Below are positions 42,901 to 61,883 of a stretch of 64,000 nt of DNA, piece by piece. This DNA is from a virus. The stretch lies in IMG/VR virus record IMGVR_UViG_3300025117_000002; one strand, given 5' to 3'. Within the stretch, counting starts at the first letter, position 1, and every line of letters starts with the position of its first letter. The notes beneath the pieces were generated by a model, which did not search any database, was not told the DNA's origin, and worked only from the letters and a program-made list of their open reading frames with translations. A program made the translations under genes and the position numbers.

Positions 42901-42978
42901 CCTTCTTATATTATTGACAGCAGTTTCAGACGCATCATTTGATTTGAATTTGAAAACCAGATTGTTCCGACTTTCCAT
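39922..42978 (-). CDS. Tape measure protein with an embedded lytic transglycosylase (SLT) domain
   Basis: 1018 aa, long and helical. SLT motif AVIRQESQFKTDAKSKVGAGGLMQLMPETAKGLGV. It lies downstream of the chaperone pair. Confidence 0.85.
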   Translation of the reverse strand: MESRNNLVFKFKSNDASETAVNNIRRYIEQIAQAHKEIPKDVEDWNSLLSTQQNLMKDITLQIDAIKGHLKDAYSESAKASTGTNISLQKEIQLLEKRLQLRQRDYAEAAKARNDINSVIDAQKRLESASKSGSSRINMPPVPAPPNPLRPQPHNPLEPKKQDSFLLERYKDFARGGLPGVVEGAAGAGLSGSIKGLASKHPVGAAIAAIGAAAFGMHKTLNWAFDKATPARSYVEQSQEMSYRYRLGQDLSDWTTKTTPGKKGIYSDKEMMEQMYPALAQSTGSMYLEGANRDKYLPMLAEYSRKQGMTFDETAKTLSVAKEGGMITHTGAGTENSLAVLTNAMVSGTKLGFDRSERLSQLQKVIQFGNKDLGAIYKDTGKNMVAELRAFEKSGMRGVVGDRAAEMLSNTKGMLGDMPIQRYASMQMMGMLPDMEEAAIKNLAETHGGDMDKARETYQGMTPAQRMQMQRQALLTSDQSLPAMSKLIKDFEGNEGMLGMMLKGGELNDKEQMQWADFVMGVKQGKFDKDALAAVMGEQEKMPADKGVAHNVQAEKSEKAKFLKDQVELTGALVALDKTIDMQIGKLNFELNALNKLFGNSAKENANPNEKPYTEATPVGRAMNKLETSANKPPLEFFKDILKHGATATKEAVKETYPETKKAYEYVAPKASGAWNTMSKWMQKGWEAVQPHVAEAQAAHPEIPKAFINAVIRQESQFKTDAKSKVGAGGLMQLMPETAKGLGVKDVNDPAQNIKGGVKHLAYLWKKFDGDPEKVLRAYNWGHEAKVAKGHKGPKETQEYVPKIMGYYEEELRREQEINEANTANRGMSTHGTKKEQEVAYEYNKKHFKHNTKTEEQTNKAVKKHTSTYDMMSTHTPVSSVNMKSNDKKTQEFPLLKDAKKEVYREKLTEKLVVPQLQSSHSAPPVDRKSQEKVEKIYNKEIVKTEKQIEKEKSNTVRLSEESAKQQQNANHSGNSGVNISTLHVGIPGFTVNQQGRDKLKETFEHHLVPLPNSNGKR

Positions 42979-46195: not shown

Positions 46196-46810
46196 TTAGC
46201 TATTATATAAACTTAAATCGATGTTATTGATGTTTATCTCTTTTATCAAATGATCCTTACTTACTATCATAGTATCTATAACAGTAAAAGTAACGACAAA
46301 TGTTCTATAAAAGAACTCCTGTGGATATAATCGAGAGATAAGATCAAGCTCTTGCACGTTACAGTGTAAATCACTCATACCATACTGTTTAAAAGCTTCT
46401 TCATTCTGCTGGAGCAAATATCTGCATATACCAGCCAATGTATCACTGACAGTAGCGTTATCTGAAGCTGATACTATCCTACAGGTTTTATTATACAGCT
46501 TAGCCTCAAGTGTGCCTATTAAATCAGGTGCAATTTCATATCGCTCAGCCCAACCTATTGTTTCTTCATCAAAACGTTCGTCTCCAGGTGCCACGTAGAC
46601 AGAAGGAGATTGTACTGTTTCTACTGGGTATCCAGCTTTCACTTTAACAGGTTGTTTACTGTAGTATTCTATTAGTTGAGTTACATCTGAAGGCTTATAC
46701 ACATCTACCGGATAAATTTCAGGTATCAGTAGAGCTGCATCAGTATGTACTGTTACCAGTGTTTGCTGCAAAAAAGCTTGTACCAGCTTATTTACTAATA
46801 TAATACCCAT
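46196..46810 (-). CDS. Neck/tail-completion region protein (204 aa)
   Basis: Position only. Confidence 0.35.
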   Translation of the reverse strand: MGIILVNKLVQAFLQQTLVTVHTDAALLIPEIYPVDVYKPSDVTQLIEYYSKQPVKVKAGYPVETVQSPSVYVAPGDERFDEETIGWAERYEIAPDLIGTLEAKLYNKTCRIVSASDNATVSDTLAGICRYLLQQNEEAFKQYGMSDLHCNVQELDLISRLYPQEFFYRTFVVTFTVIDTMIVSKDHLIKEININNIDLSLYNS

Positions 46811-47250
46811 TATCCTTTACTCCATTCTATCTTAGCTTTTTCCCAAAAGTTATAAGGCAGTAAGCCGGGGTGAATCCAGCTCCCTGGTTTTGATTTAGAG
46901 CTTACAGTTCTTATGACTACAGTTTGCTGTGCTTCTCTAATAGGAACATTCAGATATCTGTTACCTGTTTTCGATACTTTTGCTTTAGGGCTTGCAAGCA
47001 TTCCTGGTTTCATGTCAAATGGATCAACGCCTGACTCTATAGCTGTAGCTAGCCAACCTTCAAGCCGAAAAGAAGCTTCCGTACCATGTATTACAACTGA
47101 GGTTAGAGCTGAGGTATAGATAGCTGCTGTTTCAGGAGATAGAGCCATATAAGCTAGTCTCATCATCTTTTTACGGATATCTTGAGCTGCTTGCTCCATC
47201 TGTCGAACACTAAGGCTGCCAGCATTACCAAACTCTAATGTTAGTTCCAT
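46810..47250 (-). CDS. Neck/head-tail joining region protein (146 aa)
   Basis: Position only, with 1-nt overlaps on both sides. Confidence 0.35.
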   Translation of the reverse strand: MELTLEFGNAGSLSVRQMEQAAQDIRKKMMRLAYMALSPETAAIYTSALTSVVIHGTEASFRLEGWLATAIESGVDPFDMKPGMLASPKAKVSKTGNRYLNVPIREAQQTVVIRTVSSKSKPGSWIHPGLLPYNFWEKAKIEWSKG

Positions 47251-47912
47251 TACACCATCTCGGAGTTCTTGACCTTAAATTCAAGTTTAGCTAAAGCTTT
47301 TACAGGTAATTCAACATGTTTGATAGTGGTTTGCTTTACTTTTGCCTGTGTTCCGCGTATGACGTTTGGAAAGTTGAGTATGATAAATACAGGATACGTA
47401 ATATAACGTATGCTAAAAGGCTCACGAACAGGCTTAAGCCAAGTAAATACACCATCAATAAAGCTGTAATCAGTATCCTCCACATAAACTTTATTAAAAC
47501 TCACAACCGATTCAACGTCAAGTAGTGGGTACCTGAACTTAGGTATAGTATGAAGGTCCAGTATTATTTCACTGTACACTATCTTACCATCTAATAGAGT
47601 AATCTTATCAGCAAAACCAAGCCTGTGCTTAGCGTTTGTAGTAATATACACTAAGCCAGTTGCTGTAACACCTTCCAGATCGAATAAGTAATCCTTACTC
47701 ATTCCTGTCATGATAGCTTTGATTCTTGCTGGCTCTCCTATGTAATATCTACCTGTGTTTCCGCAATGTGGACACATAAGTTGAGTCTCTCCAAGCTCAT
47801 TCGCACAAGGACAAATTTGTCCTTTATGGTGAAGCACAGAGTACCCTTTATCCTTTACCAGCTGTTCAAAGTCAACTACGTTAAAGTCAACTCTTTGGCT
47901 ATCTTTGCCCAT
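47250..47912 (-). CDS. Structural-region protein with a CxC...CxxC zinc motif (220 aa)
   Basis: ICPCANELGETQLMCPHCGNTG. The structural role is from position only. Confidence 0.35.
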   Translation of the reverse strand: MGKDSQRVDFNVVDFEQLVKDKGYSVLHHKGQICPCANELGETQLMCPHCGNTGRYYIGEPARIKAIMTGMSKDYLFDLEGVTATGLVYITTNAKHRLGFADKITLLDGKIVYSEIILDLHTIPKFRYPLLDVESVVSFNKVYVEDTDYSFIDGVFTWLKPVREPFSIRYITYPVFIILNFPNVIRGTQAKVKQTTIKHVELPVKALAKLEFKVKNSEMV

Positions 47913-47921
47913 AAATCACCT

Positions 47922-49130
47922 TTATACGCACATAAACGGTATTGGTCGCCAGTATTTCTGTATTACAGGAAGCTCCTGCTCTATCTCTTTCAAATACATT
48001 CGTAGCCTAGCACTGTAACCGGCGTTCTCAGCACTGTTTGTGGTATTAATAGATTGACTCAAACCATCAACACCGATGCTTTTACTGGCTATGGCAACAC
48101 CGCCAACCAAGTCACCAAGAATATTCAAAGGCATAAATGCTGCTTTTTTGCATATCAAAGCTCTCAGGTTGTAAGGTATTTCACCTTTAGCAAAGCCAGT
48201 TGTATAGCTCAATCGCCAGAAACCAGGAATGTTCTGAGCTTGACCATTTAGTATTGGAAGAATGCCGCCAGTGGAAGGAATCAGGAAGCTTGCAAAAGAG
48301 CTACCTCCAGGAACAAGATTGATTATTCCAGCTCTCTCTTTGAGTCTTACCCAATCCAGAGGAAATGTTATGTCATTACCATAATAACTACCTTTAATAG
48401 CAGTCACTTCACGCACAGGAAAACGTTTGGTTCTCAGATATATCCATTGCATATATTCATTTCGGATAAAATCAGCCATCTCGTTGGTTACTGTACGAGG
48501 TCTAATATCAATCCCTATTACCTGTTCCAACCAATCAAAGCCAGCTTTAATCCCTTCCCAGTAGACTCCTTCCGGTAAAGGATTTCCATTATCTTCGGTA
48601 AGGTCAAGACCGTATAGATAATTTTCTCTCAGGTACTGTGGAGTAATTTCTGTATCCAGACCAGAGGATATTATAGGAATACGGTTCCCTTCAATTCCAT
48701 TACGCGAATTATAGTAAGAGTAACTGTAAAATGTACTAGGGGTATGGGTAATGTCCTCATCTATGTATGTTGTTATGTTTCTTGTAACCATTATATCAAT
48801 AGTATCAAGTAGAGCATGCTGAGTGTAGTCAGCAGTTGTTCCAAAGTATATATTAAACTGATCGAACAAAGTTAAGGTTACTGGAGCATCTTCCTCGCAA
48901 ACATACTTTAGAGCAGGAACAACTTTAATCTGTTTGCTGTTAGTAACAGCATCTACCTCTAACATCAAAGCAGTAGGACTATTAATAGTTCCTACGACAA
49001 TTTTTGATCCTATGTTCAATCCTTCTGTAGAATTAAGATATAATATATCCGTGTTAGCTGCTACAGTTTTTGTGACCAAGAACTTAGCATAAGGTACAGT
49101 ATCAAATGCTGCCATTTGAACTAAATTCAT
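47922..49130 (-). CDS. Structural-region protein (402 aa), possible neck/adaptor
   Basis: ORF-track frame with an AAAGGGG SD. Position only. Confidence 0.35.
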   Translation of the reverse strand: MNLVQMAAFDTVPYAKFLVTKTVAANTDILYLNSTEGLNIGSKIVVGTINSPTALMLEVDAVTNSKQIKVVPALKYVCEEDAPVTLTLFDQFNIYFGTTADYTQHALLDTIDIMVTRNITTYIDEDITHTPSTFYSYSYYNSRNGIEGNRIPIISSGLDTEITPQYLRENYLYGLDLTEDNGNPLPEGVYWEGIKAGFDWLEQVIGIDIRPRTVTNEMADFIRNEYMQWIYLRTKRFPVREVTAIKGSYYGNDITFPLDWVRLKERAGIINLVPGGSSFASFLIPSTGGILPILNGQAQNIPGFWRLSYTTGFAKGEIPYNLRALICKKAAFMPLNILGDLVGGVAIASKSIGVDGLSQSINTTNSAENAGYSARLRMYLKEIEQELPVIQKYWRPIPFMCV

Positions 49131-49134
49131 GATT

Positions 49135-49458
49135 TTACCCCTTTATACCTTGTGGTTTAAGCTCTAGTTGCTCTTGAATAATCTCATCTTTGTATATTAG
49201 AGTTGCGCTTGCTACCTCAACTACTAAAATATAAGTTCCTATAGCTACATCTTCTGTAGCTGTTGGTGGAATTCTAAGCTCAAACTTTGTATTGTCTACT
49301 GACTTAGACATGTCTCCACTGGCTACTGTATTGTCTACAGTATGAATACCCAAGACTTTAACTATAGCCCACTTACCAGCCCAATCTCCTTCAAAACTAG
49401 GAACTTGTGGGGATGTAATATCCATCCCGAAGCTACACCCTTGCTTCATTCTTATCAT
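49135..49458 (-). CDS. Small beta-rich (Ig-like) structural-region protein (107 aa)
   Basis: Composition and position only. Confidence 0.35.
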   Translation of the reverse strand: MIRMKQGCSFGMDITSPQVPSFEGDWAGKWAIVKVLGIHTVDNTVASGDMSKSVDNTKFELRIPPTATEDVAIGTYILVVEVASATLIYKDEIIQEQLELKPQGIKG

Positions 49459-49658
49459 AGTATGTCCACCTCAAATGTAGTTTCTATTATCCTGTACTGA
49501 AAAGTATAAGGTACAACATAATCGAATGTCCTTAATACAGGATCAGGAAAGAACTCAGTTATTCTATCTACCAGACGAAAATTTATTTCCGTAGGAGTAT
49601 TTATAAACTCGCCACCCGCACCACTTACCTGATATAACCAATCTGGATATATACTCAT
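49455..49658 (-). CDS. Hypothetical protein (67 aa)
   Basis: ORF-track frame with ATGA overlaps. Confidence 0.35.
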   Translation of the reverse strand: MSIYPDWLYQVSGAGGEFINTPTEINFRLVDRITEFFPDPVLRTFDYVVPYTFQYRIIETTFEVDIL

Positions 49659-49858
49659 CTCTTGCTCTTTGTATTTAATATGTTGGCTACTATCTTTAGT
49701 ATAAGATGATTCACAATCTGGCTCAATTTATCTACTTGTTTAACCTTTCCCTGCTCATCTTCTCCGTATAATTTATAGTCAAAGGAGTCTACAGTATTAT
49801 CACTACTATAGACTCTTCTATTATCTTTGAGTACCTTGACTCGCATATTATGGTTCAC
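49655..49858 (-). CDS. Hypothetical protein (67 aa)
   Basis: ORF-track frame with overlaps on both sides. Confidence 0.35.
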   Translation of the reverse strand: MNHNMRVKVLKDNRRVYSSDNTVDSFDYKLYGEDEQGKVKQVDKLSQIVNHLILKIVANILNTKSKR

Positions 49859-50459
49859 TTCCTATCCTGGTCAATTTATCAGCGGATATATCGAACAACC
49901 ACAATGGAGTAATGCCATCGTCTTCATAAATTATAACAGACCTACCATCTCCTGAAACTACAGCTTTGTTTGTCTGCATCTTTCTACCTTTTGTAGCCTC
50001 AGTAAAGGCATTAGAAGCATTCAGAGAAGCTGAATTAGAGTATGTTACGGCATTACGAAGAAGTTGATCCTGTTCAGCAGAAAGCCCTGAGCCTGTAGAG
50101 GTAGTTACTATAGTCGAAGAAGCAGATTGTACTATTAGAACTTGTACTCCATCAGAGTAAGCTATAGTATCTCCATCCACTCCACCTACTAAGTTTCCTC
50201 CATAAATCCTAACAGTATATCCACCTTGAGCTGCGTCTGGAAACTTCAGCTGCCAACCCAACAAATTAAGAGTCATTCCAACAGCTATTCCACTTCCCAG
50301 GCTTTCTTTACCAGAAGCAGTGGCTATTGGCGGGTACAGGATACCTGCTTCAGAAGCTTCAATACTTCTAATGTCGTTTAGCAAAGCTTGAACATCTACA
50401 TCCACGGTATCTTGAGGAACATAGATGAACTTCTGTGCAAAATCATAAGCAAAAGCCAT
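49848..50459 (-). CDS. Structural-region protein (203 aa)
   Basis: ORF-track frame. No named motif. Confidence 0.35.
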   Translation of the reverse strand: MAFAYDFAQKFIYVPQDTVDVDVQALLNDIRSIEASEAGILYPPIATASGKESLGSGIAVGMTLNLLGWQLKFPDAAQGGYTVRIYGGNLVGGVDGDTIAYSDGVQVLIVQSASSTIVTTSTGSGLSAEQDQLLRNAVTYSNSASLNASNAFTEATKGRKMQTNKAVVSGDGRSVIIYEDDGITPLWLFDISADKLTRIGSEP

Positions 50460-50474
50460 CTTAAAGCCTCTATA

Positions 50475-51860
50475 TTATTGAACAATAGTGTCAGTAGTTC
50501 TAATAGCAGCCACAGTCAAACCTGCACTAGTTACTGTTCCAGTGTTCTCAAATGGGAGAATTGATTTTTTTCTTACTCTTGCTATCACATCAAAGTTAGA
50601 GACATAAGTAATAGCTGGACTTGAAATAGATGTGCTAGATGCTACATCGTCTATTATAGGTACATAACAAGCAGTACCTCCAGCATATTCAGATACAGCA
50701 GTCATACCTGAAAAAGTTTTTGTACCTCTATTCAAGCCAGTGTAAGTATAGCGGTCATCCCCTACTCGTAGTATTCCTGTAGTCGAAATATCAGCACCAA
50801 CTACCTCGTTAACAGTTACAGTTGTCGCAGTTCTCGAAGCGACTGTAAACTGAGATTTATTTATAGTTCCGGCAGAAGAACGAGCTACAAGCACTCTATC
50901 TCCTGATTGTACAGCTGACACTGTTACTGTCATCTGCACCGGAGGAGTTTTTGTAGTATTTGTTGCATCTATAAGAACTCTATTGTTTGGATCGCTAACA
51001 TTGGTCAGGTATATCCCTCTAGCTCCAAAGAACTTTCCGCCTGCAAATGTGCCAAAAGGAGACGCTTTAACTTCGGCATACGAAGCATTGGCTGATAGAT
51101 AAAAACGACCTTCAGTAGTTGTTCCGGTACCAACAGCACTTGTATTTTCTCTTCTTGTAATATACTTCAAATAAGTATACACATCAGCACAAGTATTACC
51201 GTTGCCATCTACAGTCACATCATAATCTTCATTTGTGCCATCACCATCCACATCAGCAGAAGCCACTCCAAAAGCTACAGTTACTCCTATTACAGACGCT
51301 CCTCCGCCATCCTCATTTGTATCCGGTGAAGTGGCTATAGGTACAGGGTTACGGCCACCTGTGGTAGGAGCTTGCAGCTTGAAATGATCGTATAAATCGG
51401 CATTGCCTACTGCGTTGTTTCGTACAAAAGCAGTAAGATACCTTGTGTCTATATCGGCTCCAGTAGCCCTCACTTTTATCAACTGATCGATATGTCCTGT
51501 AGTATACCCAGGAGCTGATGCTACAAGAGAACCATTCTGATACCAATAAACAACTGCATCTGCTTCAATAGTACCCAAAGTGTAAAAGTTAGCCCAAAGA
51601 TCATCAGTTTCATTTACTTTAATAGAACCTTGATACAAGTAACCAAGGTCAGTATCGGCATTAAATGTCCATCCATTGATAAGCTCGTACTCAGTAGGAG
51701 TGTTTGCTTTTATAGGTACGGTGTCATCCATTTGACCAGCATCATCAAATAAGTCCATAAGCCAGGAGTACAGAGCATTTACAGTGTAGCGTATGGTGCC
51801 AGTAGAATGACTGATCTTTTTAGTGGTGTAGTTTAAAGAGAAATCGTCAGAGATAGCCAT
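50475..51860 (-). CDS. Structural-region protein (461 aa)
   Basis: ORF-track frame. Thr/Gly/Val-rich beta composition typical of fibre or virion surface proteins. Confidence 0.4.
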   Translation of the reverse strand: MAISDDFSLNYTTKKISHSTGTIRYTVNALYSWLMDLFDDAGQMDDTVPIKANTPTEYELINGWTFNADTDLGYLYQGSIKVNETDDLWANFYTLGTIEADAVVYWYQNGSLVASAPGYTTGHIDQLIKVRATGADIDTRYLTAFVRNNAVGNADLYDHFKLQAPTTGGRNPVPIATSPDTNEDGGGASVIGVTVAFGVASADVDGDGTNEDYDVTVDGNGNTCADVYTYLKYITRRENTSAVGTGTTTEGRFYLSANASYAEVKASPFGTFAGGKFFGARGIYLTNVSDPNNRVLIDATNTTKTPPVQMTVTVSAVQSGDRVLVARSSAGTINKSQFTVASRTATTVTVNEVVGADISTTGILRVGDDRYTYTGLNRGTKTFSGMTAVSEYAGGTACYVPIIDDVASSTSISSPAITYVSNFDVIARVRKKSILPFENTGTVTSAGLTVAAIRTTDTIVQ

Positions 51861-51871
51861 GTTTCACTCCT

Positions 51872-54800
51872 TTAAGACGGAATTGGGTCTTGTACTTGTG
51901 AAATATATACATAAGCACCATCAGTTGTGAGGTTGCTATTTACCTCAAACGGAAGATACCTTGTTGATCCTGGTGAGTTATTTCTTACTCTTACTGTTAT
52001 TATCATACTCTCAGTAACTAGAAATCCAGAAAGAATTTGTGGGTTAGCTGAGGATACACCTGTAGCTAGTACATTAGATGGATTTGCTGCTTCAGCTATC
52101 CAGTACCTTGAACCAATTACTATATTAGCAAGAGTAATTGATACTCTTGTACCTGTTGAATCTATTATCTTACCGGAAAACGATCCTCCGTTACTCAAAG
52201 TAATAGTATTGGTAAGAGCAGATAGTATTTTTCCTTCCCCTGTTACAGCTGCACTATCTATTACAATGGAGTAGGTAGACGTATATGTTATACCATCAAT
52301 GGTACTAAAGAACTGGTCATAACTAAAGTTTTGTAACCAATTATATTGGCAGTAGTCATATAAGTCATAAATTGTATGAGCAGTTGAGACAGTAATAGTC
52401 TGTGTAATGTGATTTATGCTTATGCCTGCGTAAGCAGCCACTGTAGCTTCTACAGTTTCTGTAATATATGGATTTGTGGGTAAGTCAGTAATATCCATGA
52501 AGTATTCAAGACTTGTTTCATACAAGTCTTTTTGAATAGTGAAAGCTCTTTTACCGTATTTACCGTTACGTAGTACAAAATTTGACCATATAATATCAGC
52601 ATCCGTTCCGGTAGCATCAGTTTTTTGCATTAAACGTACCAGTAATTCTTTATAATTTTGAGTAGGTGAGATGAAATGTTCTAACTTCTGACTATCCGTA
52701 GTTGCTGAAGCACTGTCAGCAGCTACTGTTGTTCCATCATATGTTAGCTCCAAAGTTGGAAGCGTATGAACATTAGCGTAATATACGATACTTTGAATTT
52801 GAGTATCTATCGATAAATAAAATGAGTTTCCAACTACACTTCCTGTATTGATACGAAAATTTGTATCGTGTGTTTGTGTACTCTGCGTCGAGGTAGCTTT
52901 CAGTTTGTTAGGAGTTGTTTTGGTTGAAATATACTCTCCACGCGGAGTATACGTTCGGTAATCAGTTGTATCATTGTTATAATGCTTCACTTTCAGTATA
53001 AAATCAGGGTCAGTATTGGGTATTGTGTAAAAGTCTGTTGTTGGGGTAAAAAGACCAGTAGGTGAATCTAATAGAATATCTCCAGTGGCATCAGGGAAAA
53101 ATACAAAGTCTCTAGCATTGGCAACTTCATCTCCGAAAATGTTATCTTGTGCAATAACCTTGAAAGCTGAACCTTGTACTCCAAGAGCGGCTCCGCATTT
53201 ATTGAATCTGTTACCACTAAATTCTTTCAACTTGGAGGTATAAATGTTGATTGCGTAACTGTAACTGGTTGATGTTAAAGAAGACGAACCCCAAAAATCA
53301 TTGTCTTTGATTGTTGCATTGGTTCCTGATGCTTGTAAGATATAAAATCCATTTTGAAAGACGTTATTTCTAATAATAGCATTGTTACAAGTTGCCATCA
53401 AACTGTAGGACATATTTATGCCAACGCAATTTTGAACAATGAGTTGTCCACTAACACCAGCAGTATATGCTGGAATACCAGCATAGGGGGCAAGAAAGCA
53501 AGAATACACATATTCAATCAGGAACCCATTGAAAGATATGTTTGGATTACCAAGAGCCTGACTTGAACCAGCAGATGAATACACGGAATTGTGTCCAAAA
53601 TAATATTGCGAAACACCGTCAGTAGACACTGCTCCTCCACCGTTTCCGAATGAAAAAAATGTTTCGTCTATAAGACAACCTTTTATTTTTAAATTCGTCT
53701 GCCCTCTAAAGTAAAGTCCTGGCCTGTTTGTAGTATTACCTTCTATGGTCATTCCGTACTTGTATCTGACAACATAAGCTCCAGCCATACGCTTAGCAGT
53801 TGCAAGGTTTGGCGTGACTTGAATTGTTGATTTTTCCCCATCCCATGAAACGGCACTGACCGTATGCTTAGTATTTACGCCTGGACCAAAAGTATCCTGT
53901 TTGCCAATTGTTAAAATATCTCCTACTTCCACTGGCAAAGTTCCAGCAGTAACGTCTGTATCGCTGTAAATAGTATTAGCTCCGACTGCTGCATCTGCAT
54001 TGATGGTAAAGGTTTCGACTGTTGGAATTTCTCCGTAAGCGAAAATTGACATACCAGCACCACCAGCATATGCCGAAGTTCCGTTATAGATACCGCTCAA
54101 TGTTCCGACTGTTCTATTAGGAAAGCTGAGTTTACATTTTTGAGCATAAGGAATTGGAGTCGCTTCTGTGCCATACCTAATTCCGCTGTGGAATCCTAAT
54201 TGTAAAACACCATCGACAGCCAATGTGTAAGAAGTTAAAGGAGTTAAACAGATAAGATTTTCATTGAGAGACGATGTGGTGATTTGTGCAGCAGATTTAC
54301 AGATAATTAAGGCGTTTGCTTGAGCGGCATCTCCTGTACCAAGGACTCCCTTTAATGTCATGTTCTGATCGATGGTTGTTTGAGCACACAAAACCAAAGC
54401 GTCATTATCAGCTGCGGTCTGTGCAATATCTGAAATTTCCACATAAAAAGCATCGGTGGAATTAGAAGTTCTTAGTTGATGATTTCCAGTCGTGCCACCA
54501 GTTTGGTACACGGCATATCTCCAAGTACTTGCAACAGCTGTGACCGTATAACCAGTCCAAGTAAAATACAGAAAAATTGTGCTTACATTGTTTGTAGCAT
54601 TAGTAATTTCTGATGCTGTTTGCTCCTGCATTCCTCTAACCGACCACAGTGTATGTGTTCCAGATTGACTTCCAGTTGTGTTTATTGCTGTTCCTCCTGC
54701 GGTTGCAGAAAGCTGGAAAGTATTGGTTGATGAATTTACAACATAGTAAACTGTGTTTGCAGCAAGACCCCCAGGTAACGCTCCAGTTGTCGCAATAGAA

Positions 54801-55117
54801 ACTGCTTGACCATCGGAATATCCGTGAGAATTATAAGTAACAACTCCAGGAGAAGCTATGGTAATTGTGCAAGTGCCTTTGATTTCCTGTAGCGAAACAT
54901 TTAATGACCGATTTACAGTTCTTAAATTTGGACTAAGAGAAAGCACAACGCCCTGATTCTGCCTGCTTCCAGTAACGGGAGTAAACGGAATTACATGTGG
55001 AGAAGTACCAAGGCTTAAAACTGTCCCATGATTACAGCTCATATTATAAGCCTCAGCCTTCAAAAAACCATTTGTCGTTGATAGGCTGCAAGGTGCAATG
55101 TTTACAAGTACAGACAT
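51872..55117 (-). CDS. 1081-aa fibre/tailspike-like protein with a central right-handed beta-helix
   Basis: PbH1-like turns (NCVGINMSYSLMATCNNAIIRNNVFQNGFYILQASGTNATIKDNDFWGSS). The N-terminus has HGYSDGQAVSIATTGALPGGLAANTVYYVVNSSTNTFQLS, a motif common in phage fibre N-termini. Confidence 0.55.
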   Translation of the reverse strand: MSVLVNIAPCSLSTTNGFLKAEAYNMSCNHGTVLSLGTSPHVIPFTPVTGSRQNQGVVLSLSPNLRTVNRSLNVSLQEIKGTCTITIASPGVVTYNSHGYSDGQAVSIATTGALPGGLAANTVYYVVNSSTNTFQLSATAGGTAINTTGSQSGTHTLWSVRGMQEQTASEITNATNNVSTIFLYFTWTGYTVTAVASTWRYAVYQTGGTTGNHQLRTSNSTDAFYVEISDIAQTAADNDALVLCAQTTIDQNMTLKGVLGTGDAAQANALIICKSAAQITTSSLNENLICLTPLTSYTLAVDGVLQLGFHSGIRYGTEATPIPYAQKCKLSFPNRTVGTLSGIYNGTSAYAGGAGMSIFAYGEIPTVETFTINADAAVGANTIYSDTDVTAGTLPVEVGDILTIGKQDTFGPGVNTKHTVSAVSWDGEKSTIQVTPNLATAKRMAGAYVVRYKYGMTIEGNTTNRPGLYFRGQTNLKIKGCLIDETFFSFGNGGGAVSTDGVSQYYFGHNSVYSSAGSSQALGNPNISFNGFLIEYVYSCFLAPYAGIPAYTAGVSGQLIVQNCVGINMSYSLMATCNNAIIRNNVFQNGFYILQASGTNATIKDNDFWGSSSLTSTSYSYAINIYTSKLKEFSGNRFNKCGAALGVQGSAFKVIAQDNIFGDEVANARDFVFFPDATGDILLDSPTGLFTPTTDFYTIPNTDPDFILKVKHYNNDTTDYRTYTPRGEYISTKTTPNKLKATSTQSTQTHDTNFRINTGSVVGNSFYLSIDTQIQSIVYYANVHTLPTLELTYDGTTVAADSASATTDSQKLEHFISPTQNYKELLVRLMQKTDATGTDADIIWSNFVLRNGKYGKRAFTIQKDLYETSLEYFMDITDLPTNPYITETVEATVAAYAGISINHITQTITVSTAHTIYDLYDYCQYNWLQNFSYDQFFSTIDGITYTSTYSIVIDSAAVTGEGKILSALTNTITLSNGGSFSGKIIDSTGTRVSITLANIVIGSRYWIAEAANPSNVLATGVSSANPQILSGFLVTESMIITVRVRNNSPGSTRYLPFEVNSNLTTDGAYVYISQVQDPIPS

Positions 55118-55129
55118 GTTATCTGTCCT

Positions 55130-55456
55130 TTATACTCTTCCATATAATCTTTCGACGTTATACTGATACTCAGCTGTTCTTGTTCTAAGCCTACCGTCAT
55201 CGAAAGTATACGTGACAGTTAAAGCTTTAGGCTCCAACTCAAGACGATTGTTCCTGAGAGCATTAACGGAAGGAGCTATTTCTATGTTTACAATAGAAGA
55301 AAGAGGAGATATTTCTGTGTCTGCTTGTAAACGTACACCAGAGTTGATATCCGTAATACGGTAAGTGGCAGTAACCGGAGCTACTGCCACACCATTGTTA
55401 TCAAGGAACTCAATCTCTACTGTACACCCTGAATCTTGAGGTACAGTCTGAGCCAT
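55130..55456 (-). CDS. Small beta-rich structural-region protein (108 aa)
   Basis: ORF-track frame. Composition only. Confidence 0.35.
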   Translation of the reverse strand: MAQTVPQDSGCTVEIEFLDNNGVAVAPVTATYRITDINSGVRLQADTEISPLSSIVNIEIAPSVNALRNNRLELEPKALTVTYTFDDGRLRTRTAEYQYNVERLYGRV

Positions 55457-56106
55457 TACGTTACCCTCGCTTCAACCAAATTGGTTCTTCGTGTTCTACC
55501 AGCTAGTTTACCAGCTTCTACCCTTGATCTATTCTTCTTCAGTGATCTGAGCCAGTAACCTATAGTGGCATATTTGATGTTTAACTTCGTACTTACTTCC
55601 TCTTGAGACAAGCCTGATTCATAAAGTCTGACTGCCTCTTTTACATCTTCTCTATCTGATAGAGATTTACATGCATTACCGGGGATCAAATTGGTTTTAA
55701 CACTCGATTCCTTTTTCAATCTCTGTAACTCGCTCCTTACCCAAAGTCTTTTTTCTCTAATGTGAGGCATAACCTCCTGTCGAGGGTGGCCTATTGGAAA
55801 TTGTAGGGCTATTTCTACTTGAGCTTTCTTTACTATTACAAAATCTTTGATAGTGTTCAAAAAATTCAGAGCTGTTTCAGAGTAAATAGCCCAAGTATAA
55901 GAAGCTTTGCCTGCTTTTTCATAATAATGCTTAGGGAAGATGATGTTACCACCAAATCTTTCCCTAAGCATCTCCAGAACAGGTAGAGTGTTTTGCGTGA
56001 CGGTTACGGAGAGTACCATGTATTTGTTCTTCTCAGAGTGACTAACTCCTACATAACCTTCCCCATCAAAGAAACCCGCAAAATAAGCTATTAGAATATC
56101 TTTCAT
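55456..56106 (-). CDS. Free-standing LAGLIDADG homing endonuclease with a C-terminal HTH
   Basis: There is a single LAGLIDADG motif, LIAYFAGFFDGEGYVG, near the N-terminus. C-terminal VSTKLNIKYATIGYWLRSLKKN is HTH-like. Confidence 0.8.
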   Translation of the reverse strand: MKDILIAYFAGFFDGEGYVGVSHSEKNKYMVLSVTVTQNTLPVLEMLRERFGGNIIFPKHYYEKAGKASYTWAIYSETALNFLNTIKDFVIVKKAQVEIALQFPIGHPRQEVMPHIREKRLWVRSELQRLKKESSVKTNLIPGNACKSLSDREDVKEAVRLYESGLSQEEVSTKLNIKYATIGYWLRSLKKNRSRVEAGKLAGRTRRTNLVEARVT

Positions 56107-56150
56107 CTTCTATTATATCCTTTTTCAAAAAACTCAATTAAATCAATAAC

Positions 56151-56693
56151 TTAGACCCCATTAAACTGGTGATTCACAAAAACCTTCAGAGTGTCAGTAC
56201 TGGTCTTTGTAAAAGAAGCAGCAAACAGCCAGTGGCAGTGAGCCGCAGTAGGAGTTGTGATATTATCAACAACCGCACCCTCGTTAATACCAGCAGAGTT
56301 TGCTTCCGTGGTAGCGTAGGACACTCTCCAAGTAACGATATCAAGACCGGCACCAGTATTGTCAGTATCAGCGTCCCCAGTTTTCGGGTAAGTAGCATCT
56401 ACAGCTTTACCTGATCCTGCAACGAATGTAGTTACATCAGCGTCAGCTTTTGCAGGAGCTGTAGAGCCTGTACCCAGTCGCATTCCACCAGCAGCAAAAT
56501 CCTTATTGGGGGTTTGGCCACAAGCTTTTTCTGCATAGTACCTATCACCAGCATCGGTAACGATATTGGCACCAAGAATAGCAGTTTCTGTGCCATCTGC
56601 GTGTGTCAGAATGGCAACTACGTTGCACTCTCTCTCAATACCATCGGAGAAGAGCACAGATTTTCCGAAATACTCGTTTACATTGACCTTCAT
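56151..56693 (-). CDS. Virion-region protein (180 aa), strongly expressed by its SD
   Basis: AAGGAGG SD. Ala/Thr/Gly-rich beta protein. Loosely resembles the 122-aa product of 61925..62293. Confidence 0.4.
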   Translation of the reverse strand: MKVNVNEYFGKSVLFSDGIERECNVVAILTHADGTETAILGANIVTDAGDRYYAEKACGQTPNKDFAAGGMRLGTGSTAPAKADADVTTFVAGSGKAVDATYPKTGDADTDNTGAGLDIVTWRVSYATTEANSAGINEGAVVDNITTPTAAHCHWLFAASFTKTSTDTLKVFVNHQFNGV

Positions 56694-56791
56694 CTTGGAT
56701 GACCTCCTTGCGTTTGTCGCTTTTTGTTATGACTGCTACAACTTTCTCTTTGGCTCGTAATTTGTCAATCATTCGTACCTCTCTTCTAATA

Positions 56792-59700
56792 TCACTCTGG
56801 AGGCTGATTATCGTTTTTCACTTTAAACTTCGGTCGAGTCAGCCTGAAACACAGTATGAGCTTAACAAGTGGTACTACTCTTGTTATAACAAATTTCTTT
56901 CCACTTGTGATATTAATATTCACTACATCAAGTATAACCCGAAACATAGCTTTACGATACTTGATTGTTTCTTCTATATCTTGTATTGCGTTGAGAATCC
57001 TGATGTAAATAGCTGACTGTATGGTAATATCTATTAGTCTTACCTGTTCAGCTATAAGTCTTACGTAGTGCCATGCTGTTGATTTACTCTCAGAAACTCT
57101 CAATAAGTCTCCAGAGTACCGATTTATAGCCAACTGCTTCTGACTGCTATGTACTAGGTTAAGGTTGTTATTCACCACATACAACCAGTTTTTACGTACT
57201 ACTTCCACCAAATTCTCTGCTTCATCTATTATACGTTTTAGCATCAGTCTTATTTCCCTTGTTTCAGAGAGTGAGATAAAGTCACTGATAGACAGTCTAA
57301 TAGATTTAAGATGACTGATGATATCCAAATGAGTCACTATATCCCTCACCACCCTGGTCATGGAAAGCTGTTTGTAGGTGTTACCTACTATCTGTAGCAC
57401 ATGATTAATAGCTCTTCTCAAAGCTCTTGAGGTCATCCTATCTTCCACCAGAGACTCAGAATTATTTACTATCCTATTCCATGTACCTAACTTTAAGCTT
57501 TCCTCTATAAGTGACTGAACATTATCTATTACACGAAGAATAGTGTGTTTAAAATAATTACTCTCGTAAGCTTCAACCTGATCGTTTTTAATCCGCTTAA
57601 GTGCTCCTCTTCGGTGTGCTGTCTCAATATGATTCATCCAGTAGTTTACAATCTTTAGGATAGTGTGAACAAAATAATTTGTTTCTATTAGACTTACAGA
57701 CCTATTGATAACTTGCTTAATAACCTTTCTGCTAAGCCGTGTTTCAATAAGCTGCAACACTTCGTTAACGTACTGAAGGATAGTTTTCTTTCTCACTATG
57801 CTTTCAAAAGATTCTACTGTTTTATTTATTACACGATTTAGGAATCCACGTTTATATCTGGTTTCGCTTAACAGAGTAATTTCATTACTGACCCTCTTAA
57901 GAGAAAGATGATGCAATGTGTTATCTACGAAATTTAGTGTATTGTCTATTATTCGTGAAATTTTAATGTTTCTTTGAATAACCTCAACAACTTGCTGTGT
58001 ACCGTCCTGAAGAATTCTATTCAATCTCATCACTCTATGCCTAGCTTCCAGTATCGACAAAGTATCGTCGCTAAACCTACGTAAGAAGAGCTTATGAGGA
58101 TAAGTTTCCCAAAGCTGCAATACTTCAGTTTTCAATCGACGTAGTACTCTAGGTCTTAACGTAGATTCGACAAGCTGTTGAGTCTCTGTTTTAAGTCTTG
58201 TCAGGTATCTGAATCGTCTACTAACCTCAGCTACACTTTCTATATCAGCTACATTTCTCTTTAAAGCTAAGCTTTTAAGGATCGATTCTACTAAAGAAGC
58301 TACTTCAGATTTGATCCTTACCATAGTTCGGCTACGCAAAGACGACTCTACTAAGCGTAAGCTTTCATCTTTCTGCCTAATTCTACAGATCAATTTATAC
58401 TTTGTTTCAATCAGGTTTATTGTATCAGAAACAAGCTTACGCAATTGTCTTACAAAACTATGAGTCTCGACTACGGATACAACATCAGCTATTGGTTTAA
58501 GAAATCCTAATACTCTTCGTCTTGCCTCAACAAATTGCTCAACTTCTGTTTCTATAAGAGTTATCATTTTCTGTTTGACTACAGTACTTACAAGCTGAAC
58601 AGTATCTGATGCAAGTCTAACATATTTTATATTCTGGAACGTTAAATCACTTATAAAGAATGCATCTAATACCGCTCTTATTCTTCCAGTTATGTAGTTT
58701 GTTTCAGCTACTGCTTCTTCATAAGTAATAGGAGTACCGTCATCCTCATTTGTTATACTGTTACCTGTTACTTCCTCAGTTATATTATGCTGAGGAGCTA
58801 ACCTGTGAAATATAGCCTGTAAATCTTTAACTACCTTAAGCAAAAATCTCCATCCTACTATAGCTTCAACAAATTGAACTGTATTAGACACAATCCTAAC
58901 AAGCTCAGTTTCTAAAGTAGTAGCAGTAGCTGACTGAGCTTGTGTGCCAGCATTAGAAACTATAACATGATTTTGTCTTAAGGTAGGAGATACAGAAGAA
59001 GTAGCGTGTGTGCAGCTTTCAAGCTGCATTAAATGTACCTGTGAGAACGAGCCACTGTCTGTAATGTGAGCATGAGATGCATTAGCAGCAAGAATAGATA
59101 TTATAATAACGTATCCACTAACTGTATTATTTATATCACTTGTATTGGGCGAACCTACTGATCTAGCATCTACTAAAATGTCATAAGTACCAGTTTCTGT
59201 TGGAGTCCAATCCCAGTAAGCAGTAGTACCGTATGCCCTTTGAACAGAATAGCCACCACTATCCTTTTGAATAGAAAATTGATACTCATAAGGCGCAGTA
59301 CCACCTGAAGCTGTAGCATCTATTCTTACAGTTGCTCCTACATTGCTTGGAGAAGAAACATTTGGAGTAGTAATAAGACTAGTAGGTGCTAGCAGTAAAG
59401 ACAGCACGGAGACTTGCTGAGCATGAAAGCTATGATTTGTGGATAGCACATGCTCTTGTGTAAAAGTACTGTTATCAGCAAGCTGAGCATGTGCAGCACT
59501 TCCAGCTATAATAGAATATGAATCTACGAGATTCCCACCAGACCAATCATCCCATGCACCTGAGAGTCCTCCTAGATACAACCCAGGTGCTCCTCCACTG
59601 GCTATACTAGAATCAGTAATCGTGTTTGGGTCAGCAACTCCATTGTAATAAACAGTAAGAGTATTGTCGTTTACTTCAAACTTTATTACATCCCCAGGAG

Positions 59701-60049
59701 CAGAAGCTTTTGTGATAGCACCTGTTCCAAGGTATGAAAAAGAACCAGTTAACCACCTACAGAAACGAAAGGTGGTAGCTGATACCATTACACCATAAGC
59801 ATTCTTGTTGCCCTGGCATCTTACCAACAAAGCCATATAGGTAGTACTAGCAGCTATAGTAGCCTGACAGTACTGATTGGACGCAAAAGTATCAGCATTC
59901 CAGTAACAAGCATTGTCATCACCTGTTACTGTGCCTTGTACTCTGTTGCTAGTAAGCTGGCAAGCATTAAACCAGCCAGCTGTAGACCAGTTACCAGCTA
60001 TCGGATTTTCATTTACTCTATTAAAACTGTCAGAAGCAGGAAGAGCCAT
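56792..60049 (-). CDS. 1085-aa virion-module protein: lectin-like N-domain, Ig-like domain and about 30 tandem 20-residue repeats
   Basis: The repeats run from about residue 383 to 1060 and are hand-phased (see findings). Units such as LNRVINKTVESFESIVRKKT / ILQYVNEVLQLIETRLSRKV / IKQVINRSVSLIETNYFVHT follow one another without spacers. Confidence 0.6.
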   Translation of the reverse strand: MALPASDSFNRVNENPIAGNWSTAGWFNACQLTSNRVQGTVTGDDNACYWNADTFASNQYCQATIAASTTYMALLVRCQGNKNAYGVMVSATTFRFCRWLTGSFSYLGTGAITKASAPGDVIKFEVNDNTLTVYYNGVADPNTITDSSIASGGAPGLYLGGLSGAWDDWSGGNLVDSYSIIAGSAAHAQLADNSTFTQEHVLSTNHSFHAQQVSVLSLLLAPTSLITTPNVSSPSNVGATVRIDATASGGTAPYEYQFSIQKDSGGYSVQRAYGTTAYWDWTPTETGTYDILVDARSVGSPNTSDINNTVSGYVIIISILAANASHAHITDSGSFSQVHLMQLESCTHATSSVSPTLRQNHVIVSNAGTQAQSATATTLETELVRIVSNTVQFVEAIVGWRFLLKVVKDLQAIFHRLAPQHNITEEVTGNSITNEDDGTPITYEEAVAETNYITGRIRAVLDAFFISDLTFQNIKYVRLASDTVQLVSTVVKQKMITLIETEVEQFVEARRRVLGFLKPIADVVSVVETHSFVRQLRKLVSDTINLIETKYKLICRIRQKDESLRLVESSLRSRTMVRIKSEVASLVESILKSLALKRNVADIESVAEVSRRFRYLTRLKTETQQLVESTLRPRVLRRLKTEVLQLWETYPHKLFLRRFSDDTLSILEARHRVMRLNRILQDGTQQVVEVIQRNIKISRIIDNTLNFVDNTLHHLSLKRVSNEITLLSETRYKRGFLNRVINKTVESFESIVRKKTILQYVNEVLQLIETRLSRKVIKQVINRSVSLIETNYFVHTILKIVNYWMNHIETAHRRGALKRIKNDQVEAYESNYFKHTILRVIDNVQSLIEESLKLGTWNRIVNNSESLVEDRMTSRALRRAINHVLQIVGNTYKQLSMTRVVRDIVTHLDIISHLKSIRLSISDFISLSETREIRLMLKRIIDEAENLVEVVRKNWLYVVNNNLNLVHSSQKQLAINRYSGDLLRVSESKSTAWHYVRLIAEQVRLIDITIQSAIYIRILNAIQDIEETIKYRKAMFRVILDVVNINITSGKKFVITRVVPLVKLILCFRLTRPKFKVKNDNQPPE

Positions 60050-60065
60050 TGTACGTTACCTCTCC

Positions 60066-61883
60066 TTAGAAAGCAGTACCACCATCAATTCTGAAACGCT
60101 CTCCCCCTGCGTATAGGATGATATTCCTGTTACCACTTCCCGCATCCTCTATTAGAACTGTGCCGTTCATATCAGCAGAAGCTGCTGGAAGACTTGCTGT
60201 GGCTACTACTGGAGTTTTTGTACGCATAATTTCTTTCCAGTAAGTAGTTCCTTTACGAAACAGAATTCCGTCACCTTTTTCTAGCAGAGTGCTGATACCA
60301 TTCTTAAGTGCAAAATTGTTAGTACTAGTGCCATGACTTATAGTGAGGGTGCCTGTACCCCCGGTTTTCTCTATATACAAAAGTTGTCCCAACATACCAT
60401 CAGCTGCTGTAGAAAGAGTATCGTTTGTATTAGAGGCATGCTCTATTACATTTTGATGCTTTGGCCATAAAGTATCTCCACTTGCAGGACAAGCTGGTAC
60501 CCAGCCAGCAGGAGAAGTGAATATTACATGATAGTAACCATTAGCATCTGGTTCTATATTATACGTGCCTCCATAATTTTCGCCAATCTCAATACCATCA
60601 CTTGATCCACCTACAGCAATATGGCATTCTCCATTAAACCTATTGCCTTTAATACAACCAGAAGCAAAAACTGCTGTGTTCTCTATGTTGTAAGAACTTC
60701 CCCATATCAAGTTATTTTTTATATTGAAAGCATGACCATAAGAACCTTTTATTCTAATACCACATCCTTTGCCATCAGTAGCTCCTATGCCGTTGTTTTC
60801 AACGTAACAGCTTGTAATGTCAACTATGCCACAACTCTCAAATAGCATACCAGATATCTCAGGTGTGGTAGTTGTTAAGCCGTTACCTTCAAAGTTACAA
60901 GTTTCAAAAGTCCAAACTAATCCAGATTCTACACCTGAAGTATTTTTGACATGTATACCGTGTTTCTGAGACTGTCCTACTCTTACTTTCTTGAAATGAT
61001 TAATAGACATAGTGTAAGCACTCTCAATGTAAATGCCTGTGTCCTGGGAGTACATAACATCTATCTCTTCAAAGGTAAGCCAATTGAACCTATCTGAGCC
61101 GTGAATACCATGTTTAAACTCAGATATCTTGAGATGATGGTAGGTGTGCCAATCATTAAAAGTATTGTCATCAGTTCCTTTAATTCTAATAGCAGAAGAT
61201 GACGTAAAGCCATCGACATTCTTCATAAAACCGCCACCAAACTCAAAGTACATAACATGGTTATTAGTACCAGCAGAATCTACTGTTAGTACATCAGCAT
61301 CAGCATAAGGTCGTAGTGTTGCGCCGTTCAGGTTGATAATAACTTTAGCCAGAAATGCTGATCTGACAGTAAAGTTACCACGGTATACTTTAGCTTCAAA
61401 GTCAACCACTCCACCATTCGTGGTAACACAAGCTATAGCTGCGTTTATAGCAGCACTATCGTCAGTGCTGTCATCAGCAACCGCTCCCCACCAAACAGGC
61501 TCAGTTCTCCTAAGCCCTATTACAGTACCAGCTCCAGCGAATACCTGATAACTACCTGCTATTAGATGAGACGAAGGAGCAAACTCACATGTATTGGTAC
61601 TTGTAACATTGATCCTACCTGTAGGAGTCACCCAAATGTTTTTATTTACTATATAAGCATCGTCAATCTCTTGAGCATCAGACACTATCAAGAGCTTGCC
61701 ATCCAGTGTGGCATCATCAAGTGCTACAGAAAGATCAGTCACCTGTACATAGTCGAACACAAGGTCTTTAGGAGCTATTCGTCTGGTAGCAGCACCTTGT
61801 ATAATAGTCATCATGTTCTCTGTTCTATTAATAGGCAGAGTTGCAGCTTCCCTGGTTAAGACATAATCTTTGTGACTAGACAT
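60066..61883 (-). CDS. Pectate-lyase-3-like beta-helix tailspike/depolymerase
   Basis: WWGAVADDSTDDSAAINAAIACVTTNGGVVDF is the canonical start of the Pectate_lyase_3 / tailspike beta-helix. It is followed by PbH1-like turns. Confidence 0.7.
   Translation of the reverse strand: MSSHKDYVLTREAATLPINRTENMMTIIQGAATRRIAPKDLVFDYVQVTDLSVALDDATLDGKLLIVSDAQEIDDAYIVNKNIWVTPTGRINVTSTNTCEFAPSSHLIAGSYQVFAGAGTVIGLRRTEPVWWGAVADDSTDDSAAINAAIACVTTNGGVVDFEAKVYRGNFTVRSAFLAKVIINLNGATLRPYADADVLTVDSAGTNNHVMYFEFGGGFMKNVDGFTSSSAIRIKGTDDNTFNDWHTYHHLKISEFKHGIHGSDRFNWLTFEEIDVMYSQDTGIYIESAYTMSINHFKKVRVGQSQKHGIHVKNTSGVESGLVWTFETCNFEGNGLTTTTPEISGMLFESCGIVDITSCYVENNGIGATDGKGCGIRIKGSYGHAFNIKNNLIWGSSYNIENTAVFASGCIKGNRFNGECHIAVGGSSDGIEIGENYGGTYNIEPDANGYYHVIFTSPAGWVPACPASGDTLWPKHQNVIEHASNTNDTLSTAADGMLGQLLYIEKTGGTGTLTISHGTSTNNFALKNGISTLLEKGDGILFRKGTTYWKEIMRTKTPVVATASLPAASADMNGTVLIEDAGSGNRNIILYAGGERFRIDGGTAF

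Follow-up and report, generated by a model that had tools for sequence, protein, structure and literature searches.

The stretch of DNA considered here (the window) comprises 64,000 nucleotides of the virus record IMGVR_UViG_3300025117_000002 and is part of the structural region of a myovirus. On its minus strand lies a gene for a protein of 1085 amino acids, in which residues ~383-1056 consist of about 30 tandem units of 20 residues. From N- to C-terminus, the protein can be subdivided into an N-terminal domain, a run of ~22-23-residue units with an inserted immunoglobulin-like (Ig-like) candidate module, the array of 20-residue units and a short C-terminal tail (Table 1). The array had been pointed out in an earlier note, which proposed a solenoid or fibre of possibly new architecture.

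The 20-residue period is strict over residues ~457-1056, where the sequence aligns with itself when it is written in rows of 20. Self-similarity was scored with BLOSUM62 over residues 381-1062 and expressed as a z value against a lag-20 null from 200 shuffles. Lags of 20, 40, 60, 80 and 100 gave z values of 10.6, 11.0, 10.7, 9.4 and 8.8, respectively, and the best lag off the multiples of 20 reached 3.5. With a profile of the unit, 22 units exceeded the 99.9th percentile of shuffled sequence; they are spaced by 19-21 residues, or by multiples of 20 where a weak unit was skipped. The periodicity that had been read off by hand is thus real, and the nine 20-mers quoted for it are found at residues 717-896. 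The claim that the units follow each other with almost no indels holds for residues 697-956, where the exact register is kept, but not for the N-terminal half of the array, where the register slips by one residue in either direction. Towards the end of the array, over ~100 residues, the units are degenerate. The acidic insert said to interrupt the array could be located at residues 427-456.

When 30 units were registered by hand, position 1 was found to be hydrophobic in 23, position 6 to carry N/D/S/T/G in 23 and position 11 to carry L/I/V/M/F in 21. An R or K occurs at position 2 or 3 in 24 of the 30 units and an E or D at position 13 in 18. Key positions are retained in 60-80% of the units, and the 'invariant R...E ladder' of the earlier note is overstated for this protein. 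The array is basic, its net charge amounting to +34 (R 10.2%, K 6.2%, E 6.8%, D 3.8%), and contains only 3.7% Ala.

In the DNA of the gene, Tandem Repeats Finder detected no repeat, even at a score of 30, which places the period at the level of the protein. A full-length orthologue of 1087 residues is encoded on the 103.5-kb viral contig IMGVR_UViG_3300025117_000042 (L002), with the same gene order around it. The two proteins are 52% identical over their full length with 7 gaps in 1089 columns, so that the number of units is the same; the variation in repeat number that had been proposed as a check was not seen between the two orthologues available. In every region the proportion of nonsynonymous differences (pN, 0.19-0.40) is below that of synonymous differences (pS, 0.55-0.88, near saturation). 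The repeat gene is therefore genuine and evolves under purifying selection. Identity is lowest in the array (45-47%, without change of length) and highest, at 67%, in the Ig-like module and the C-terminal tail; the ~40-residue insertion at residues 417-456, at 65%, also lies above the repeats. Taken together, the lack of a DNA repeat, the same unit count and a pN well below pS show that the period reflects a structural constraint and not recent duplication.

The array is covered by no named family of PHROGs, Pfam, NCBIfam or the PDB, in agreement with the earlier impression that the 20-mer stands outside the known repeat families. Neither the array of the query nor that of 10 relatives had a match in Pfam-A, and NCBIfam yielded none either. 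Only three small PHROGs of unknown function matched some relatives marginally, and the best hit of a PDB sequence-profile search of the array had E = 1. Pfam-A includes models for leucine-rich repeats (LRR), tetratricopeptide repeats (TPR), pentapeptide, hexapeptide, PbH1, choline-binding and adenovirus-shaft repeats. None of these models matched the array. A 20-residue repeat of this kind was found nowhere described in the literature searched.

The protein nevertheless belongs to a large family, which is missed by word-indexed protein searches. In such searches the whole protein retrieved only relatives of its domains, the array alone retrieved a truncated copy of itself and a profile of 60 sequences retrieved nothing; an exhaustive scan was therefore needed. 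When the array was scanned with HMMER against 1.84 billion cluster representatives (clusters at 50% identity), 322 representatives were found at E <= 1e-3 and 119 at E <= 1e-10. In 150 of 156 fetched family proteins the best self-similarity lag is 20 or 40. An iterated hidden Markov model (HMM) of the unit collected 2216 units from the relatives, with the window protein excluded, and the spacing of successive units is exactly 20 in 1564 cases.

The consensus of these units is LVRIINETVQISEAILRLRG, with three basic and two acidic positions. Conservation is much stronger at some positions than at others: R/K at position 3 reaches 88%, E/D at position 7 95%, I/L/V at position 11 89%, E/D at position 13 96% and G at position 20 33%. 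Insertions are tolerated only after positions 17-20. Family members typically consist of a variable N-terminal region (median 313 residues), the array and a short tail (median 44 residues), which by eye is mostly hydrophobic and then basic. Two members carry true concanavalin A (ConA)-like Laminin_G_3 domains. Others are nearly all array and tail, namely stop-to-stop open reading frames (ORFs) of about 436 residues with units over residues 45-404.

The distribution of the family was examined with a degenerate DNA pattern of four in-phase E-x-h-x-h-x-E cores, where at least 5 HMM units were required for a true member. In IMG/VR, 115 stretches matched the pattern and 62 loci proved to be true members. 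Among cellular genomes (one for each of 185,579 species) 110 stretches matched, of which one was a true member and the others were LRRs or low-complexity tracts. The sole cellular member (L162) lies on CBDFGF010000005.1, from a thaumarchaeal metagenome-assembled genome (MAG) of Nitrosopumilus sp. A tblastn search with the query and two canonical members against 50,697 cultured-phage genomes gave no match to the repeat. The family is thus essentially viral and so far uncultivated. A Cas4-like nuclease is encoded beside the repeat gene in many IMG/VR loci, and some members of the family may come from archaeal viruses or proviruses.

Outside the array, the N-terminal 175 residues are shared at about 32% identity with three other proteins (P0004, P0005 and P0006). 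Their alignment contains 31 invariant columns, including MALPA at the start and D-x-W-x-G-x-N near the end, and the domain matches phrog_2804 'virion structural protein' (E = 2.8e-4). The jelly-roll or lectin-like fold proposed for it in the earlier note could not be confirmed: Laminin_G_3 was matched at only E = 0.29 and a PDB profile search came back empty, so that no fold can be assigned. In P0004, P0005 and P0006 the domain (MALPATD at the start, D-x-W-E-G-G-N-L near the end) is followed by repeats of 20-21 residues with a quite different sequence, as in 'DRERSGQSDAVLTTSA...' from P0006. The N-terminal domain seems to associate with period-20 arrays in general.

The second duplicated segment reported to bracket the Ig-like module is also genuine. 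The two bracketing segments (including residues 317-349) align locally with a score of 70, compared to 28.5 +/- 5.3 and a maximum of 57 in 2000 shuffles. They are part of a run of ~22-23-residue units over residues 179-224 and 317-387, with self-similarity peaks at lag 22, and these units grade into the 20-mer array. Because such units stand on both sides and pass into the 20-mer, the Ig-like module and the ~40-residue segment look like insertions into one long repeat region. The assignment of the module itself is weak but consistent. Its relatives P0001 and P0003 bear PF07495, the Ig domains of T5-type phage decoration proteins (8zvi, 5lxk) are matched at E = 0.2-0.9 and the SprB repeat at E = 0.001, under that model's cutoff. 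In the C-terminal tail the last degenerate unit (1037-1056) is followed by a hydrophobic stretch and a basic end.

Table 1. Features of the repeat gene and of its surroundings in the window
Feature	Coordinates	Strand	Residues	Basis or remark
Whole repeat gene	56792..60049	-	1-1085	ORF list; full-length orthologue; pN well below pS in every region
N-terminal domain	59525..60049	-	1-175	Common to P0004-P0006; phrog_2804 match
First pair of ~22-23-residue units, 'SIxAxxAxHA...FxQxHxx'	59378..59524	-	176-224	Duplicate of 317-349
Ig-like module (weak but consistent assignment), inside the ~22-23-residue unit array	59102..59377	-	225-316	PF07495 relatives; decoration-protein Ig
Second set of ~22-23-residue units, merging into the 20-residue repeat	58904..59101	-	317-382	Self-similarity, duplication
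First units of 20-residue type	58802..58903	-	383-416	First family-HMM match begins at residue 383
~40-residue insertion with acidic segment	58682..58801	-	417-456	65% identical to orthologue
Main array, 25 units of 20 residues	57182..58681	-	457-956	Lag analysis, profile, family HMM
Degenerate units	56942..57181	-	957-1036	Weak profile scores only
C-terminal tail	56792..56941	-	1037-1085	67% identical to orthologue
Depolymerase-type tailspike gene (605 residues), upstream	60066..61883	-		PF25692 Phage_depo_C E = 2.3e-5, above cutoff
Gene of the ~190-residue family (180 residues), downstream	56151..56693	-		Co-occurs with repeat gene
LAGLIDADG homing-endonuclease gene	55456-56106	-		C-terminal helix-turn-helix
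ORF of 108 residues	55130-55456	-		~117-residue family
Protein of 1081 residues with tail-fibre-like N-terminus, downstream	51872..55117	-		phrog_9370 'tail fiber protein' E = 3.7e-8, residues 80-155
Tail sheath gene	44164-45930
Lytic tail protein gene	39922-42978
ORF of 1881 residues, tail/baseplate region	28844-34489	-		No PHROG match

The genes around the repeat gene agree with the proposed setting among tailspikes. It stands in a tail-appendage cluster, immediately downstream of the gene of the Phage_depo_C tailspike and upstream of that of the 1081-residue protein with the tail-fibre-like N-terminus. The tail sheath shares 29-35% identity with its counterparts in SPO1-like Bacillus phages and Thermus myophages. 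Nearly all long ORFs of the window are on the minus strand. The GC skew runs from -0.17 to -0.30 at positions 1-22000 (replication genes) and mostly from 0 to -0.15 at 24000-64000 (structural genes).

The commonest neighbour is a family of ~190-residue proteins: in 28 of the 64 loci, a member is encoded no more than five genes away from the repeat gene. Searches of Pfam, PHROG and the PDB gave no match for this family, except that the 180-residue copy in the window weakly matches phrog_4176 'tail fiber protein' (E = 0.0019). The family is well conserved: 10 columns of its alignment are invariant, among them N43, Y53, A54 and a C-terminal N-H pair, and its consensus contains the motifs NIVTDAGD-YYA and DTLKVFVNH. 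Judged from this co-occurrence, the ~190-residue protein is likely a partner of the repeat protein; it may act as partner, tip or chaperone. A ~117-residue family, to which the 108-residue ORF belongs, follows the repeat gene at a distance of 2-3 genes in 10 loci, and a different family of ~118 residues occupies position +1 in 13 others. In another subset of the viruses the repeat gene is followed by genes for a ~118-residue protein and a Cas4-like nuclease and by the terminase genes. Between the 180-residue and 108-residue genes of the window lies the LAGLIDADG gene. On the orthologous contig the 183-residue and 108-residue genes are directly adjacent, without the endonuclease, whose gene appears to be a mobile element that entered the tail-fibre cluster recently.

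Over 11,187 bp, the JGI contig Ga0103680_10000047 (103,631 bp; L001) matches positions 46792-57978 of the window at 100% identity. The first 634 bp of the contig differ and are occupied by Ribosomal_L21e and RNA_pol_Rpb4 genes (rpl21e/rpoF) of archaeal/eukaryotic type. As the junction (window position 57978) falls inside the repeat array, only a C-terminal fragment of 374 residues (P0008) was called on that contig by JGI. An archaeal host was considered from this join and rejected: the join lies within the repeat at the very end of the contig, and SPO1-like and Thermus phages have similar tail sheaths. The join is probably an assembly chimera.

As regards the fold of the array, the composition of the family units is rich in beta-branched residues and poor in aromatics: V, I and T make up 31%, while F, Y and W account for 1.8%, 0.6% and 0.3%. 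Residues of low helix propensity recur at fixed positions, with N/D/S/G/T at position 6 in 82%, N/G/S/D at position 10 in 51%, S/T/G/D/N at position 14 in 60% and the G at position 20 already mentioned. A first AlphaFold run on the monomer, with a messy full-length alignment, reached a mean predicted local distance difference test (pLDDT) of 50. In a second run (AlphaFold2, monomer, ten units, gapless in-register alignment) one of five models was all-beta with a strict periodicity, its strands occupying unit positions 19-5 and 9-13 in each of the ten units. The PDB neighbours of this model are overwhelmingly beta-helices and beta-solenoids (SufB/D, an ice-binding protein, pectate lyase, LpxD/GlmU, tailspikes). 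None of them is significant in Foldseek, where the best hit had E = 3e-3, a probability of 0.16 and a template modelling score (TM) of 0.27. In BFVD, two uncharacterised proteins of uncultured Caudovirales, A0A6J5NPS6 and A0A6J5SW87, match the low-confidence all-beta model with a probability of 1.00 and a TM of 0.58-0.61.

Covariation was analysed by mean-field direct-coupling analysis (DCA), for which 1262 to 2213 windows, each spanning two or three units, were used. The signal is dominated by pairs i and i+20. Pairs i and i+40 are nearly as strong, however, which indicates mostly homogenisation of the repeats within proteins, and the i to i+20 signal was therefore dropped as evidence for stacking. 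Local coupling is at least as strong at a separation of 2 as at 1 and far stronger than at 3 and 4, in both of two split halves; the mean z is 2.63 at separation 2, 0.57 at 3 and 0.25 at 4. No covariation at i,i+3, i,i+4 or i,i+7 was found. The most robust feature of the covariation is a mirror symmetry. The unit profile reads as a palindrome centred on positions 10 and 20 (score 0.77; the 99.9th percentile of the null is 0.55), and the anti-diagonal i+j' = 40 is the top covariation centre, with a mean z of 2.65 and 2.09 in the two halves and 2.88 overall. In the full set the pairs 17-3', 16-4', 15-5' and 13-7' reach z values of 4.0-5.3. A three-sided beta-helix with faces of 7, 7 and 6 residues was rejected, as the sub-repeat has no statistical support and the expected near-corner pairs do not co-vary.

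From these data it is fairly probable that the array is a beta-type stacked repeat, either a solenoid or a stack of hairpins. A fuller account, in which the protein is a virion appendage of an uncultivated myovirus and the array its beta-solenoid or hairpin-stack spacer rod, has a little less than an even chance of being correct. In this account, each unit would give short beta-strands joined by tight turns, and the units would stack into an elongated rod. If one unit corresponds to one coil of 4.8 A, the rod would measure about 14-15 nm; an intertwined oligomer would be longer. The Arg/Lys residues at positions 3 and 17 and the Glu residues at positions 7 and 13 would form lengthwise charge ladders, covering hydrophobic stripes at positions 5 and 15 and thereby making the rod soluble and stiff. 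The rod would serve as a spacer, with the Ig-like module and the N-terminal domain presented at one of its ends. The conserved C-terminal tail would hold the rod in the virion or bind the conserved ~180-residue neighbour protein, and the ~190-residue protein and the tail would act as attachment or tip partners. The Ig-like and lectin-like accessory domains, by analogy, likely have a role in weak glycan adhesion. Since the prediction of the monomer does not converge, an obligate oligomer is plausible. The beta fold, rod shape, oligomeric state, orientation and role in adsorption are all what we infer from this combination of models, covariation and context.

A number of observations weigh against this account. 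The all-beta model has a pLDDT of 53 and a predicted TM (pTM) of 0.40, the other four models of the run have a pLDDT of 31 or less, and the turns of the model (positions 6-8 and 14-18) disagree with the mirror centres (10 and 20) of the profile and the covariation. Gly makes up only 1.3% of the array in the window protein. Most of the i,i+2 covariation comes from segment 14-20, which is prone to indels and in which sequence 'cassettes' could produce a similar signal, and the mirrored pairs co-vary like with like (R-R, K-K, D-E), which points to a shared environment around a two-fold pseudo-symmetric unit and is not proof of contact. The placement of the protein in the virion is read from gene context, and its N-terminus resembles no known baseplate-attachment domain in Pfam, PHROG or PDB profile searches. 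Other observations favour a helix. In the first AlphaFold run the most regular units were unstructured, while long helices with a pLDDT of 55-87 appeared at residues ~910-1040, which include true repeat units. The hydrophobicity power is 539 at the 3.33-residue harmonic, against 129 at 2.5 and 106 at 2.2. On a helical wheel, all conserved polar positions (3, 6, 7, 10, 13, 14 and 17) share one 120-degree face, the heptad positions a, d, e and g being hydrophobic, and R3-E7 and E13-R17 show the i,i+4 spacing of a helix. The array could then be a homotrimeric alpha/beta coiled coil (7+7+6 = 20, with a beta-layer every 20 residues and a fibre of ~90 nm), or a stack of antiparallel amphipathic helices of ~17 residues that turn at Gly20. 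Gly20 and a Pro at position 18 could cap such helices, the failure of the monomer models to converge is expected for an obligate trimer and the mirrored covariation about position 20 would also suit an antiparallel helical hairpin. Hexad insertions were shown to force beta-layers, and most of the known beta-layers occur in phage fibre trimers (Hartmann et al. 2016, PMC4786415). The alpha/beta coiled coil, suggested by the hydrophobic pattern, was downgraded after the covariation, motif and sub-repeat tests. Helical covariation is absent, and cyclic shifts of the profile by 6, 7, 13 and 14 score -0.30 to -0.48, within the null for a 7+7+6 sub-repeat. The beta-layer motif [aliphatic]-A-T-K-[polar]-[DE] is matched at 3 of 6 positions in its best register (V2-R3-I4-I5-N6-E7), and in the alternative register R19-G20-L1 the third residue is hydrophobic. 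About half of the positions are hydrophobic, too many for a simple trimeric coiled coil, and the beta-branched composition, the scarcity of Ala and the N/D/S/G/T at position 6, mid-helix, do not suit helices. Mirrored covariation is unexpected in a parallel trimer, and AlphaFold is usually confident on helical repeat proteins, which is not the case here. An alpha-type array is accordingly considered unlikely, if still a serious competitor.

Two further explanations are improbable, each to about the same degree. The array could be a highly diverged form of a known beta-repeat (choline-binding/CROP (combined repetitive oligopeptides), triple beta-spiral, hexapeptide helix or PbH1/pectate-lyase) whose sequence similarity was lost. 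Choline-binding and CROP repeats are likewise hairpin units of ~20 residues, LpxD/GlmU, pectate lyases and tailspikes are among the neighbours of the all-beta model, and phage fibres commonly reuse such folds. Against such an origin stand the empty Pfam and NCBIfam searches, the insignificant PDB profile and Foldseek hits, the rarity of aromatics and the fact that periods of 5, 6 and 15 are not seen. Alternatively, the array itself could be the working surface, a strongly basic rod with affinity for a polyanion such as wall teichoic acid, capsule or nucleic acid, or the protein could be a non-fibre component that is capsid-associated or internal. The net charge of +34 leaves room for direct binding of a polyanionic cell-wall polymer, the family consensus has more basic than acidic positions, many members have little beyond array and tail and the N-terminal regions are highly variable. 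The relatives of the tail sheath are SPO1-like phages of Gram-positive hosts, and the position beside terminase genes instead of tail genes in a subset of viruses would suit a non-fibre component. However, the array is the least conserved region between the orthologues, the charge excess is particular to the window protein and not family-wide, and the gene in the window lies within a tailspike/tail-fibre cluster.

Of the earlier proposal of a solenoid or new fibre, the solenoid-like rod is thus the part best supported, while a new fibre architecture is not established by a generic beta-solenoid model of such low pLDDT. A new fibrous fold would be obligately oligomeric and intertwined, with two-fold pseudo-symmetric units and continuous Arg/Glu ladders, beyond the reach of monomer prediction. 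It would serve as a modular rod in hundreds of uncultivated bacterial and probably archaeal virus lineages, together with a dedicated ~190-residue partner. This possibility must be regarded as doubtful.

With at least 322 clusters at 50% identity, the interest shifts from one odd protein to a large, almost wholly viral repeat family that is unannotated and has neither a solved relative nor a confident AlphaFold model. Tail fibres and related appendages decide the host range of phages, and the shafts of most uncultivated phages are structurally uncharted. If the fold is new, the few viral fibre architectures would gain a further building block, and one that, being regular, fixed in register and lined with charge ladders, would lend itself well to protein design as a scaffold. 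Should the array be an ordinary beta-solenoid, the repeat profile would still annotate hundreds of 'hypothetical' virion genes and flag the ~190-residue partner.

Several known systems share features with the array. T4 Hoc and T5 pb10 are phage appendages with Ig-like or lectin-like accessory domains. The Ig-like module is probably related to Ig domains of decoration proteins, and some members of the repeat family carry the ConA-like Laminin_G_3 domain, but a long repeat rod is lacking in Hoc and pb10. Choline-binding and CROP repeats likewise form long tandem arrays for surface binding, with ~20 residues per unit, and their hairpin-plus-linker unit would fit the mirrored covariation. They are rich in aromatics (GW/YY), whereas F, Y and W together make up 2.7% of the 20-residue family units, and PF01473 (CW_binding_1) was not matched in the query or 10 relatives. 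In the triple beta-spiral (adenovirus fibre, reovirus sigma1, PRD1 P5) a viral shaft is likewise composed of short tandem strand-turn-strand units that have a conserved turn Gly and a variable loop, and an obligate trimer would explain the failure of the AlphaFold monomer. Its period, however, is about 15 instead of 20, a charged ladder is not known there, lag 15 is not among the 15 best-scoring lags of the window protein and no Adeno_shaft Pfam match was obtained. The alpha/beta coiled coils (PMC4786415) have in common with the array the 7+7+6 arithmetic, the heptad-like amphipathic pattern and a small-residue break every 20 residues; they differ in the beta-layer motif, in the expected helical covariation, in the number of hydrophobic positions and in composition.

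Among the individual beta-helix classes, the left-handed hexapeptide helix (PF00132), which has a period of 6/18 with [LIV]-G-x4, finds a weak 6.67-residue harmonic (32 vs 539), no Pfam match and Foldseek hits to LpxD/GlmU at E >= 0.1. For pentapeptide repeats (PF00805), whose sub-period A(D/N)LXX would recur four times in a 20-residue coil and which are also without a Pfam match, a cyclic shift of 5 gives the lowest self-score of the profile (-1.06). The right-handed PbH1/pectate-lyase helix of tailspikes gives no Pfam match and Foldseek hits at E = 0.09-2 with a TM of 0.33 or less. The generic class of beta-solenoids and beta-helices (LpxA/GlmU, pectate-lyase/PbH1, ice-binding, SufB/D) differs from the 20-residue repeat in the absence of a sequence or significant structural match, in the palindromic profile of the family, in its two nearly invariant Glu and two Arg/Lys per unit and in its helix-like hydrophobic periodicity. 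The confidence of the all-beta model does not suffice to tell its handedness or how many faces it has. In common with this class, the array has a strict short period within the typical length of a coil (roughly 12-30 residues per unit), turn-type residues at fixed positions and a strong same-position coupling of adjacent units, strongest at the Q/N of position 10, as in Asn ladders, and the AlphaFold model and its structural neighbours are of the same class. The array is therefore most likely a variant of the beta-solenoid or fibrous-repeat theme that is known from phage appendages.

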